In this document: in pieces, positions 9,001 to 15,000 of the stretch | How the letters are laid out: each line of letters opens with the position of its first letter | How positions within the stretch are numbered: position 1 is the first letter of the stretch | Assembly: GCF_056712565.1 (NCBI RefSeq) | Contig: NZ_CM160072.1 | Strand: one strand, 5' to 3' | Length of the DNA: 64,000 nt | Made by a program: the position numbers

Positions 9001-12000
9001 ATTTGCCGTGGTGGCTGGTCTGCCGGGGGGCGATTCATAAGTTCCGCTGTGTGCCGCATCTCACCGGGCGGCGCTTTGAGCACGGGGTGACGGACTGTTA
9101 CACGCTGTTCCGGGACGCTTACCATCTGGCGGGGATTGAGATGCCGGACTTTCATCGTGAGGATGACTGGTGGCGTAACGGCCAGAATCTCTATCTTGAT
9201 AATCTGGAGGCCACAGGGCTGTATCAGGTGCCGTTGTCAGCGGCGCAGCCGGGCGATGTGCTGCTGTGCTGCTTTGGTTCATCGGTGCCGAATCATGCCG
9301 CTATTTACTGTGGTGACGGCGAGCTGCTGCACCATATTCCTGAACAACTGAGTAAACGAGAGAGGTATACCGACAAATGGCAGCGACGCACACACTCCCT
9401 CTGGCGTCACCGGGCATGGCGCGCATCTGCCTTTACGGGGATTTACAACGATTTGGCCGCCGCATCGACCTTCGTGTGAAAACGGGGGCTGAAGCCATCC
9501 GCGCACTGGCCACACAGCTCCCGGTGTTTCGTCAGAAACTGAGCGACGGCTGGTATCAGGTACGGATTGCCGGGCGGGACGTCAGCACGTCCGGGTTAAC
9601 GGCGCAGTTACATGAGACTCTGCCTGATGGCGCTGTGATTCATATTGTTCCCAGAGTCGCCGGGGCCAAGTCAGGTGGCGTATTCCAGATTGTCCTGGGG
9701 GCTGCCGCCATTGCCGGATCATTCTTTACCGCCGGAGCCACCCTTGCAGCATGGGGGGCAGCCATTGGGGCCGGTGGTATGACCGGCATCCTGTTTTCTC
9801 TCGGTGCCAGTATGGTGCTCGGTGGTGTGGCGCAGATGCTGGCACCGAAAGCCAGAACTCCCCGTACACAGACAACGGATAACGGCAAACAGAACACCTA
9901 TTTCTCCTCACTGGATAACATGGTTGCCCAGGGCAATGTTCTGCCGGTTCTGTACGGTGAAATGCGCGTGGGGTCACGCGTGGTTTCTCAGGAGATCAGC
10001 ACGGCAGACGAAGGGGATGGTGGTCAGGTTGTGGTGATTGGTCGCTGATGCAAAATGTTTTATGTGAAACCGCCTCCGGGCGGTTTTATCGTTTATGGAG
10101 CATGAGGAATGGGTAAAGGCAGCAGTAAGGGGCATACCCCGCGCGAAGCGAAGGACAACCTGAAATCATCCCAGATGCTGAGCGTGATAGACGCCATCAG
10201 CGAAGGGCCGGTTGAAGGTCCGGTGGATGGATTAAAAAGCGTGCTGCTGAACAGTACGCCGGTGCTGGACAGTGAGGGGAATACCAATATATTCGGCGTC
10301 ACGGTGGTGTTCCGGGCCGGTGAGCAGGAGCAGACTCCGCCGGAGGGATTTGAATCCTCCGGCTCCGAGACGGTGCTCGGTACGGAAGTGAAATATGACA
10401 CGCCGATCACCCGGACCATCACGTCGGCAAACATTGACCGTCTGCGTTTTACTTTCGGCGTGCAGGCACTGGTGGAAACCACCTCAAAGGGGGACAGGAA
10501 TCCATCGGAAGTCCGCCTGCTGGTTCAGATTCAACGTAACGGTGGCTGGGTGACGGAAAAAGACATCACCATTAAGGGCAAAACCACCTCGCAGTATCTG
10601 GCCTCGGTGGTGGTGGATAACCTGCCGCCGCGCCCGTTTAATATCCGGATGCGCAGGATGACGCCGGACAGCACCACAGACCAGTTGCAGAACAAAACGC
10701 TCTGGTCGTCATACACCGAAATCATCGATGTGAAACAGTGCTACCCGAACACGGCACTGGTCGGCGTACAGGTGGACTCGGAGCAGTTCGGCAGCCAGCA
10801 GGTGAGCCGTAATTATCATCTTCGCGGGCGCATTCTGCAGGTGCCGTCGAACTATAACCCGCAGACGCGGCAATACAGCGGTATCTGGGACGGAACGTTT
10901 AAGCCAGCATACAGCAACAACATGGCCTGGTGTCTGTGGGATATGCTGACCCATCCGCGCTACGGCATGGGGAAACGTCTTGGTGCGGCAGATGTGGATA
11001 AATGGGCGCTGTATGTCATCGGCCAGAATTGCGACCAGTCAGTGCCGGACGGCTTTGGCGGCACGGAGCCGCGCATCACCTGTAATGCGTACCTGACCAC
11101 ACAGCGCAAGGCGTGGGATGTGCTCAGTGATTTCTGCTCGGCGATGCGCTGTATGCCGGTATGGAACGGGCAGACGCTGACGTTCGTGCAGGACCGACCG
11201 TCGGATAAGGTGTGGACCTATAACCGCAGTAATGTGGTGATGCCGGATGATGGTGCGCCGTTCCGCTACAGCTTCAGCGCCCTGAAAGACCGCCATAATG
11301 CTGTTGAGGTGAACTGGATTGACCCGGATAACGGCTGGGAGACGGCGACAGAGCTTGTGGAGGACACGCAGGCCATTGCCCGTTACGGTCGTAACGTCAC
11401 GAAGATGGATGCCTTTGGCTGTACCAGCCGGGGGCAGGCACACCGCGCCGGGCTGTGGCTGATTAAAACGGAACTGCTGGAGACGCAGACCGTGGATTTC
11501 AGCGTCGGCGCAGAAGGGCTTCGCCATGTACCGGGTGATGTTATTGAAATCTGCGATGATGACTATGCGGGGATCAGCATTGGCGGGCGCGTGCTGGCGG
11601 TGAACAGCCAGACCCGGACGCTGACGCTCGACCGTGAAATCACGCTGCCATCCTCCGGTACCACGCTGATAAGCCTGGTTGACGGTCAGGGTAATCCGGT
11701 CAGCGTGGAGGTCCAGTCCGTCACCGACGGCGTGAAGGTGAAAGTGAGCCGTGTTCCTGACGGCGTTGCAGAATACAGCGTGTGGGGGCTGAAGCTGCCG
11801 ACGCTGCGCCAGCGCCTGTTCCGCTGCGTGAGTATCCGTGAGAACGATGACGGCACGTATGCCATCACCGCCGTGCAGCATGTACCGGAGAAAGAAGCCA
11901 TCGTGGATAACGGGGCGCACTTTGACGGTGACCAGAGCGGCACGGTGAATGGTGTCACGCCGCCAGCAGTGCAGCACCTGACCGCCGAAGTCACTGCAGA

Positions 12001-15000
12001 CAGCGGGGAATATCAGGTGCTGGCGCGATGGGACACACCGAAGGTGGTGAAGGGCGTGAGCTTCCTGCTCCGTCTGACCGTAACAGCGGACGACGGCAGT
12101 GAGCGACTGGTCAGCACGGCCCGGACGACGGAAACCACATACCGCTTCACGCAACTGGCGCTGGGGAACTACAGGCTGACAGTCCGGGCGGTAAATGCCC
12201 GGGGGCAGCAGGGCGATCCGGCGTCGGTATCGTTCCGGATTGCCGCACCGGCAGCACCGTCGAGGATTGAGCTGACGCCGGGCTATTTTCAGATAACCGC
12301 CACGCCGCATCTTGCGGTTTATGATCCGACGGTACAGTTTGAGTTCTGGTTCTCGGAAAAGCGGATTACCGATATCAGGCAGGTTGAAACCACAGCCCGC
12401 TATCTTGGTACGGCGCTGTACTGGATAGCCGCCAGTATCAATATCAAACCGGGCCATGATTATTATTTTTACGTTCGCAGTGTGAACACCGTTGGCAAAT
12501 CGGCATTCGTGGAGGCTGTCGGTCGGGCGAGCGATGATGCGGAAGGTTACCTGGATTTTTTCAAAGGAGAAATCGGGAAAACACATCTGGCCCAGGAGTT
12601 GTGGACGCAGATTGATAACGGTCAGCTTGCGCCGGACCTGGCTGAAATCAGGACGTCCATTACGAATGTCAGCAATGAAATCACGCAGACCGTCAATAAA
12701 AAACTGGAAGACCAGAGTGCGGCAATCCAGCAGATACAGAAAGTTCAGGTTGATACAAATAATAACCTGAACAGCATGTGGGCCGTGAAACTGCAGCAGA
12801 TGAAGGACGGACGCCTTTATATTGCGGGTATTGGTGCCGGTGTTGAGAATACTCCTGACGGTATGCAGAGTCAGGTGCTGCTGGCGGCGGACAGGATTGC
12901 GATGATTAATCCTGCGAATGGCAACACAAAGCCGATGTTTGTTGGGCAGGGCGATCAGATATTCATGAACGAAGTGTTCCTGAAATATCTGACGGCTCCC
13001 ACCATTACCAGCGGTGGCAATCCCCCAACGTTTTCACTGACACCTGATGGTCGACTTTCTGCGAAAAATGCGGATATCAGCGGTAACGTGAACGCGAACT
13101 CCGGGACGCTCAACAACGTCACGATTAATCAGAACTGTCGGATTCTGGGAAAACTGTCAGCTAACCAGATTGAAGGTGATATTGTCAAAACGGTGGGAAA
13201 AGCCTTTCCGAGAAATGGCAGTTATGCCAGCGGTACAATAACGGTCACTGTGTACGATGACCAGGCTTTTGACCGTCAGATAGTAGTCCCCCCCGTTCTG
13301 TTTCGTGGGGGTAAGCATGAAAACTTCAACAGCAACAACCAACAGTCATACTGGTATTCAACCTGTAAGCTGCAGGTACTGAAGAACGGACAGGAAATCT
13401 TTCAGCAACCCGCGACGGATGTCAGCAGGGTATTTTCATCAGTCATTGATATGCCTGCCGGACACGGCCATGTCACCCTGACTTTCAATGTTTCTTCATA
13501 TGGTGCTAATAACTGGACGCCAACGACCAGTATCAGCGACCTTCTTGTTGTTGTGATGAAGAAATCTACAGCCGGTATCAGTATCAGTTGAATTTTATAA
13601 CCCAGATACGGGCGCCAGAAATGGCGCCTTTTTTATTTGTGGAGTGAATATGGCAGTACAGATTTCAGGCGTGCTGAAAGACGGTGCAGGAAAACCGATA
13701 CAGAACTGCACCATTCAGCTCAAAGCAAAACGTAACAGCACCACGGTTGTGGTGAACACGGTGGCCTCAGAAAATCCGGATGAAGCCGGACGTTACAGCA
13801 TGGATGTCGAGTATGGCCAGTACAGCGTTATCCTGCTGGTTGAAGGTTTTCCGCCTTCACATGCCGGGGCCATCACCGTGTATGAGGATTCTAAGCCGGG
13901 GACATTGAATGATTTTCTGGGCGCTGCAACAGAAGATGATGTTCGTCCGGAGGCACTGTATCGTTTTGAAAAGATGGTGGAAGAGGTGGCACGCAACGCT
14001 GAAGCCGCCTCTCAGAGCGCAGCGGCAGCAAAGAAATCAGAAACAGCAGCGGCATCGTCCAGGAATGCGGCGAAAACATCAGAGACGAATGCAGGTAACA
14101 GCGCGAAAGCGGCAGCTTCTTCAAAAACAGCCGCACAAAACGCAGCAACAGCGGCAGAACGTTCAGAGACAAATGCCCGTGCGTCAGAAGAAGCCTCCGC
14201 AGACAGTGAAGAGGCTTCCCGCCGTAATGCAGAGTCAGCCGCTGAAAATGCCGGAGTCGCCACCACAAAAGCGCGGGAGGCCGCAGCAGACGCAACAAAG
14301 GCCGGGCAGAAAAAGGATGAGGCTCTGTCGGCAGCGACACGGGCTGAAAAGGCGGCAGACCGCGCAGAAGTCGCAGCGGAAGTGACTGCAGAGCCCTATG
14401 CGAATATAGTGCCGCCGCTGCCTGATGTGTGGATACCGTTTAACGATTCACTGGATATGATTGCGGGTTTTTCTCCGGGCTATAAAAAAATAGCTATTGG
14501 TGACGATGTGGTTCAGGTCGCCAGTGATAAACAGGTTAATTTCAGTCGCGCATCAACGGCAACATATATCAACAAATCTGGCGAACTGAAAACGGCGGAA
14601 ATTAATGAGCCGCGATTTGAGTGTGATGGCCTGCTTATTGAGGGACAAAGAACGAACTACATGCTCAATTCGGAAAGTCCAGCCAGCTGGGGGAAGTCAT
14701 CAAACATGGATGTGCCCGAAACCGGGACAGATAGTTTTGGTTTTACTTATGGAAAGTTTGTCTGCAACGATTCTCTGGTTGGGCAAACTTCGGCTATTAA
14801 TATGGCATCAATTGCTGCAACAAAGTCAGTTGATGTCTCAGGCGATAACAAGTACGTGACAACCTCATGCCGTTTTAAAACAGAACGACAGGTAAGGTTA
14901 CGTATACGGTTTGATAAGTATGATGGTAGTGCAACAACTTTTCTTGGCGATGCGTACATTGATACGCAAACGCTTGAAATTAATATGACAGGTGGGGCTG

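Follow-up and report, generated by a model that had tools for sequence, protein, structure and literature searches.

A tail tip protein J of phage 21 type in an Escherichia coli icd prophage: a receptor-binding domain divergent from that of lambda and a probable LamB specificity

Several relatives of the protein considered here have been characterised. For lambda gpJ (AAA96553; PDB 8iyk, 8xcj and 8xck), a conformational cascade upon engagement of LamB has been described by cryo-EM (PMC11101478). For phage 21 (OL657228), LamB has been established by experiment as the native and sole receptor (bioRxiv 10.1101/2023.04.13.536812; PMC11336670). The substitution I1025T in its J is enough by itself to add the use of OmpC (PMC11336670), further J mutations are required for the use of OmpF, and a triple knockout of lamB, ompC and ompF resists phage 21 completely, evolved phage included. 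The laboratory stock of phage 21 differs from the GenBank record by G18903A (bioRxiv 10.1101/2023.04.13.536812). In NC-SV, a prophage integrated in icd, an sRNA that represses lamB (svsR) has been reported. The closest solved structure is that of A8 gpJ, a chimera of the lambda body and a C-terminus of Stx1-phage type (PDB 9wca and 9wcb), whose receptor is OmpC and not LamB; the natural source type of its receptor-binding domain (RBD) is represented by Stx1_120412 (137 of 140 residues identical to A8). Phage 434 J, of the same family and with a lambda-like body and a short shaft of lambda type, uses OmpC according to a review on LamB.

We analysed a window of 64,000 nucleotides from contig NZ_CM160072.1 of RefSeq assembly GCF_056712565.1, which holds the right arm of a prophage only, beginning at the major capsid gene and ending with attR (Table 1). 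J is the last gene of a tail-tip cluster in the order H-M-L-K-I-J, and the side tail fibre gene comes next, as in phages of lambda type; lambda carries lom after J, whereas this locus is without it. The reading frame starts with ATG and has no internal stops, and its product scores 2388 bits against the NCBIfam profile lambda_TipJ (NF049904; cutoff 1950), residues 1-1160 lying on profile positions 1-1163. Pfam domains follow in the order FNIII-A_GpJ (86-207), Phage-tail_3 (330-496), Ig_J (610-714), Ig_J_second (716-818), Phage_Tail_Tip (872-1000) and Ig_GpJ_C (1038-1160), and lambda gpJ in the PDB (8iyk_J, residues 1-835) matches with E=0. Taken together, Pfam, PDB and Foldseek give the succession expected of a lambda-type J, namely hub, two FNIII/Ig domains, helical shaft, beta-prism and C-terminal Ig-like RBD. 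The gene is thus a real and intact tip attachment protein J of lambda type. A 515-residue antisense ORF within it (11039..12586) has no support as a gene. The exact protein sequence is already in NCBI under the name "host specificity protein J", and the protein, the allele and the host phage have all been described before, so this is not a new allele.

Table 1. Coordinates of J, its segments and the neighbouring features in the window
Feature	Position	Strand	Remarks
Tail-tip genes M, L, K, I	7703..10048	+	Directly upstream of J; all intact, 97-100% amino acid identity to phage 21; lambda order
Gene J, tip attachment / central tail fibre protein	10109..13591	+	1160 aa plus stop; ORF listing, NCBIfam, identity to phage 21 J
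Lambda-like body, residues 1-817	10109..12559	+	Hub domains and two FNIII/Ig domains; 97.4% amino acid identity to lambda J
Divergent alpha-helical shaft, residues 818-871	12560..12721	+	19-28% identity to lambda, 98% to phage 21
Central straight fibre (beta-prism), residues 872-1020	12722..13168	+	Pfam Phage_Tail_Tip 872-1000; 64-71% identity to lambda, 99% to phage 21
Receptor-binding domain (Ig-like), residues 1021-1160	13169..13588	+	Pfam Ig_GpJ_C 1038-1160
Codon I1025, wild type	13181..13183	+	Residues 1025-1026 are IV; I1025T in phage 21 confers OmpC use (PMC11336670)
Codon E1071 (GAA)	13319..13321	+	AAA (K) in the tested laboratory phage 21 stock
Terminator-like hairpin after J	13610..13629	+	8-bp stem with 6 GC pairs, then T run; counterpart of phage 21 terminator 19195-19222
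Side tail fibre gene stf, second adsorption determinant	13650..15710	+	Identical to phage 21 Stf over 686/686 aa; Pfam phage_tail_N, NCBIfam GTA_spike_fiber

Aligned with lambda J (J02459, protein AAA96553), the protein is 83% identical overall, and this figure is distributed very unevenly. The body shares the architecture of lambda gpJ and nearly all of its residues, while identity falls to 27.7% over residues 818-900, which include a 28-residue insertion, recovers to 70.8% over residues 901-1020 and drops again to 45.5% over the last 140 residues (1021-1160) that form the RBD, where four variable segments contain indels. At the nucleotide level, identity to lambda decreases from about 0.93-0.98 to 0.28-0.65 at positions 2400-2520 or so of the gene, and G+C declines from 0.58-0.64 to 0.47-0.51 near window position 12250. 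The contrast far exceeds what chance would produce and, as read from the sequence, bears the mark of a module exchange. Neither a frameshift nor an error of assembly explains the divergent end, given that the frame is open and that numerous phage and genome entries, independent of one another, contain the identical region. A preliminary description of this DNA had recognised a lambda-like body with a C-terminal region unlike that of lambda, which the alignment bears out, and had named high identity to the lambda C-terminus as the result that would overturn it; over the corresponding stretch (about residues 990-1132 of lambda J), identity is low, at the 45.5% given above. The 41-residue peptide quoted there lies at residues 1069-1109 (nucleotides 13313-13435). 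It had, however, confined the difference to the last 150 residues or so, and here the extent has to be enlarged: the divergent block begins at about residue 818 (window position of about 12560) and covers the last 343 residues or so, all of them distal to the second FNIII domain.

Within this distal module, the shaft is 28 residues longer than that of lambda, the insertion falling at about residues 839-866 (nucleotides 12623-12706), although its exact placement is ambiguous. The long form is common to BP-4795, Stx1_120412 and VT1-Sakai; in Stx1_120412, shaft and prism are 63-68% identical to those found here. An AF2 model was run as a monomer, so that it is confident for the RBD only, shaft and prism being of low confidence and in need of a trimer; residues 841-888 are helical in it at low confidence, and the RBD is modelled as a beta-sandwich with pLDDT of 73-95. 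The top Foldseek matches of this RBD model are 9wca, 8xck, 8xcj and 9wcb.

The closest relative is phage 21 itself. Its J (CPT_21_21, UMO75436.1) also has 1160 residues, and all 16 differences from it fall in residues 500-899, which belong to the hub/FNIII/shaft region, and at several of these positions the residue is again that of lambda; the last 261 residues (900-1160) are 100% identical, as are the last 780 or so nucleotides. The flanks agree as well: M, L, K and I lie upstream of J, its downstream neighbours are stf, two small ORFs and sitDCBA, and the integration site is icd. Because window positions 1..21964 are colinear with 5586..27548 of OL657228 at 99.1% identity, J matches at 1144 of 1160 residues (98.6%) and Stf is identical throughout, we consider it likely that the locus is a natural phage 21 prophage within icd of the E. 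coli chromosome and that its J has the receptor found for phage 21 by experiment, LamB. This receptor assignment, made by transfer, follows from an RBD identical to that of a LamB user and from the retention of I1025; J would then share its receptor with lambda despite an RBD identity of only about 45%, and would be one substitution, I1025T, away from using OmpC in addition. The host range of h21 may map to LamB. The preliminary description had read the divergence as pointing to a different outer-membrane receptor, and that reading is probably wrong, since the last 261 residues are those of a LamB user and both I1025 and V1026 are kept. A literature search on mEp460, whose RBD is the same, found no receptor data; the ECOR13 phage paper and a 2026 receptor-prediction preprint held nothing on J of phage 21 type, and for '21EL', the classical host-range hybrid of phage 21, only unrelated papers came up.

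By homology to lambda, gpJ is expected to act as a trimer whose N-terminal hub domains would shut the end of the tail tube, with a central tail fibre composed of two FNIII domains, the alpha-helical shaft, the beta-prism fibre and the C-terminal Ig-like RBD. Loops of the RBD would enter a trimeric porin by its extracellular mouth. Binding may then cause the three RBDs to spread, the fibre to twist and the helical shaft to flip, whereupon the hub would open and the DNA be ejected.

The main challenge to LamB comes from the stock in which the receptor was determined. G18903A of OL657228 is the first base of codon 1071, which reads GAA both in GenBank and in the window, and the tested stock thus carries E1071K, a substitution inside the RBD. 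It is conceivable that LamB-only behaviour is a property of this laboratory stock and that the natural E1071 allele uses OmpC, alone or with LamB. In support of this, the RBD of A8 gpJ, an OmpC user (PMC11338833) solved with OmpC (9wcb), is 81% identical to the one found here (114/140) and retains both I1025 and E1071, so by sequence the RBD of the window is much closer to this OmpC binder than to the LamB binder of lambda; moreover, a single substitution suffices for phage 21 to use OmpC. On the other hand, the authors state that the native receptor of phage 21 is LamB, giving OL657228 for the strain, and A8 differs at 26 of 140 RBD residues, clustered in variable segments. Ranked by RBD identity, phage 21 (100%) is followed by BP-4795 (89%), the A8/Stx1_120412 type (81%), lambda (45.5%) and 434 (39-40%), such that the proven OmpC binders stand at 81% (A8) and 39% (434), while the complete match is to the phage reported as a LamB user. 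That one incidental mutation of the stock switched the receptor completely is possible but not the simplest reading, and we regard OmpC use by the natural allele as rather unlikely. If it were true, alleles of this RBD class in the wild would lie across the boundary between LamB and OmpC.

That the divergent C-terminus targets a receptor beyond those known for the group, be it FhuA, BamA or a new one, is highly improbable. The sole point in its favour is the low RBD identity to lambda; against it, an identical RBD is present in a phage whose receptor has been assigned by experiment, the characterised relatives of this Ig-like domain all bind the trimeric porins LamB, OmpC or OmpF, and resistance of the triple knockout extends to evolved phage 21. 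A separate doubt is whether the specificity has any current role, as J could be an intact-looking relic of a defective prophage and never be built into virions. The genes for immunity, replication, lysis and terminase fall outside the window, and Sit-carrying icd prophages are fixed in many ExPEC lineages; yet all head and tail genes within the window are intact and 97-100% identical to those of viable phage 21, and repeated isolation of free phages sharing this RBD is documented by 22 phage records (>=99% identity), which makes a relic unlikely, slightly more so than OmpC use. LamB as the receptor of a natural phage 21 prophage remains our preferred reading.

The allele belongs to the phage 21 type by every segment of its distal module (shaft 98%, prism 99%, RBD 100%, with wild-type I1025) and is common. 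The hits of a homologous-protein search with J were all E. coli J fragments of nearly the same sequence (99% identity), and the RBD in its natural E1071 form occurs in some 900 complete E. coli genome records at >=95% nucleotide identity. The case carries little weight as a discovery and has modest value as a caution on receptor calls from J sequence. An identity of 45% between two J RBDs does not imply different receptors, as LamB serves both lambda and phage 21, while 81%, as between phage 21 and A8, can span the difference between LamB and OmpC; J-based receptor calls therefore need experimental anchors at the level of the allele. Furthermore, the phage 21-type J allele is widespread among ExPEC prophages carrying sitABCD, and its receptor thus bears on the spread of this iron/manganese uptake locus.

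The gene is J of a natural phage 21 prophage, and the allele is one already known: its sequence and annotation are on record, its structure has been modelled, and experiments have characterised it. Phage 21 (OL657228) 5586..27548 and window 1..21964 form a single aligned block of 99.1% identity, and all window genes from the major capsid protein gene to the icd fragment are intact and 97–100% identical to those of phage 21. Homology stops at 21964, at the att site beside the icd 3' fragment, which matches the phage 21 ICDH-like pseudogene in 54/54 aa. This right end of the prophage is attR in icd, and beyond it lie the chromosomal genes ymgL, ycgX, bluR and bluF. 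Among complete E. coli genomes the nearest match is FDAARGOS_1304 (99.88% over 29.8 kb), in which icd likewise harbours this prophage and ymgL-ycgX-bluR-bluF lie past it. When phage genomes were searched by tblastn with the last 163 residues of J, 17 phage records matched at 100%, phage 21 among them; the C-terminal 1032 nt of the gene occur at ≥95% identity in about 920 complete-genome records, and the exact protein is found in NCBI on five contigs as 'host specificity protein J'. Phage 21 J is identical at 1144 of 1160 residues without gaps, all 16 differences lying within residues 500–899, and the last ~780 nt are the same. Of the tail genes, J has diverged most from its phage 21 counterpart. 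Its 91 nucleotide differences lie almost entirely in J nt 1351–2700 (window ~11460–12800); within that stretch, nt 1921–2160 match lambda at 98% but phage 21 at only 92–93%, a pattern suggestive of a small lambda-like patch brought into the FNIII region by recombination.

The intact J is matched over its full length by the NCBIfam model lambda_TipJ (2388 bits, against a curated cutoff of 1950), and its overall identity to lambda J (from J02459) is 83% by BLASTP. At about nt 2400–2520 of J, DNA identity to lambda falls from about 0.93–0.98 to 0.28–0.65, and G+C falls coincidently from about 0.60 to about 0.49; the C-terminal divergence is therefore genuine and well beyond what chance would give. 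The preliminary description, which quoted residues 1069–1109, was right about this divergence but confined it to the last ~150 residues, whereas it extends over the last ~343. Divergence from lambda sets in exactly where the second FNIII/Ig domain ends. At that point the alpha-helical shaft starts in the cryo-EM structure of lambda gpJ, and next come the beta-prism central straight fibre and an Ig-like receptor-binding domain (RBD) (PMC11101478); the entire distal module of J is therefore a different allele. An AF2 monomer model of residues 806–1160 gives a confident beta-sandwich for the RBD (pLDDT 73–95), a helical shaft of low confidence and a poor prism, as expected without the trimer. The top Foldseek matches in the PDB are 9wca and 9wcb, which are A8 gpJ (a chimera of lambda body and Stx1-phage-type C-terminus) in the closed state and with OmpC, and 8xck and 8xcj, which are lambda gpJ in the closed state and with LamB. 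A 515-aa antisense ORF within the G+C-rich part of J lacks homology or context support as a gene and is most likely spurious.

Coordinates of J, its parts and neighbouring features (identities are to lambda J)
Feature	Window	J residues	Remarks
J	10109-13591 (+)	1-1160	1160 aa
J body		1-817	97.4%
Start of distal module		818-900	27.7%; 28-aa insertion
Rest of distal module up to RBD		901-1020	70.8%
RBD		1021-1160	45.5%
FNIII-A_GpJ		86-207	Pfam
Phage-tail_3		330-496	Pfam
Ig_J		610-714	Pfam
Ig_J_second		716-818	Pfam
Phage_Tail_Tip		872-1000	Pfam
Ig_GpJ_C		1038-1160	Pfam
Antisense ORF	11039-12586 (-)		515 aa
J-stf interval	13592-13649		
Side tail fibre (stf)	13650-15710		
Two small genes	15707-16291		
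sitDCBA	16383-19832 (-)		
Right end of prophage, with icd 3' fragment	21749-22015		

Grouped by identity to the window RBD, the J RBDs of phage genomes fall into discrete classes: phage 21 type (22 records, 99% or more; LamB), BP-4795/Stx type (89%), A8-like type (81%; OmpC), VT1-Sakai type (62%), lambda type (46%; LamB) and 434 type (40%; OmpC, PMC3509688). A nine-sequence alignment indicates that J modules are exchanged independently: the long shaft (+28 aa) is common to phage 21, BP-4795, Stx1_120412 and VT1-Sakai, the last combining a phage 21-like shaft (98%) and prism (95%) with an RBD at 62%; lambda and 434 J differ in the RBD alone, and the A8 RBD is of Stx1_120412 type (137/140). As read from this alignment, such exchange is textbook lambdoid mosaicism, and percent identity of J RBDs thus predicts the receptor poorly.

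The divergence from lambda had been taken to suggest a different outer-membrane receptor, a proposal at odds with the RBD and the side tail fibre (686/686), which match those of LamB-using phage 21. The phage 21 ancestor infects through LamB only (Borin et al., bioRxiv 10.1101/2023.04.13.536812; Gerbino et al., PMC11336670); OmpC use was gained in evolution and OmpF use later, and loss of LamB, OmpC and OmpF together makes the host fully resistant (bioRxiv 10.1101/2023.04.13.536812). The initial move towards OmpC took one J substitution, I1025T, at the prism/RBD junction (PMC11336670), and the window J keeps I1025, followed by V1026. Given the identical RBD and side fibre, LamB is therefore the most likely receptor, as for lambda, and, with the caveats below taken into account, we consider its use quite probable. 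The phage 21 stock of Borin et al. carries the J change G18903A relative to the GenBank sequence (bioRxiv 10.1101/2023.04.13.536812), which we map to codon 1071 (GAA to AAA), giving E1071K inside the RBD; the residue is E in the window J, GenBank phage 21 and A8. The window RBD is also far nearer to that of A8 gpJ (114/140 identical), a proven OmpC binder, than to that of lambda; A8 gpJ delivers DNA through OmpC in a lamB-less strain (PMC11338833), and its structure has been solved with OmpC bound. The substitution in the tested stock and the nearness to A8 thus divide the odds, such that OmpC, or dual use, is unlikely but deserves some weight, and any other receptor is highly improbable. The sequence had been read correctly at the outset; the functional step taken from it, understandable as it was, is probably wrong.

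Between J and stf, lom is absent here and in phage 21, unlike lambda, 434, BP-4795 and VT1-Sakai, in which it is present at the position after J. The side tail fibre protein of FDAARGOS_1304 (locus L003, 15251-17311) is identical to that of the window; RefSeq gives it as a truncated pseudogene and a separate 'head spike fiber' CDS, a split that looks like an annotation artefact and not a broken gene. Two small genes lie 3' of stf. One is a 92-aa ORF (91/92 identical in phage 21) for which Pfam gave no match, the other a 97-aa ORF (97/97), a putative membrane protein by phage 21 annotation. Further on, the prophage carries as a moron the iron/manganese ABC-transporter operon sitDCBA, 99–100% identical in amino acids to the phage 21 copy. 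In NC-SV, a prophage of AIEC strain NC101 at the icd/phage 21 attachment site, the sRNA svsR, located at the 3' end of cI, represses lamB (PMC12803456). If svsR is also present here, in the cI region of the prophage left arm, which lies outside the window, the prophage would down-regulate the receptor inferred for its own J.
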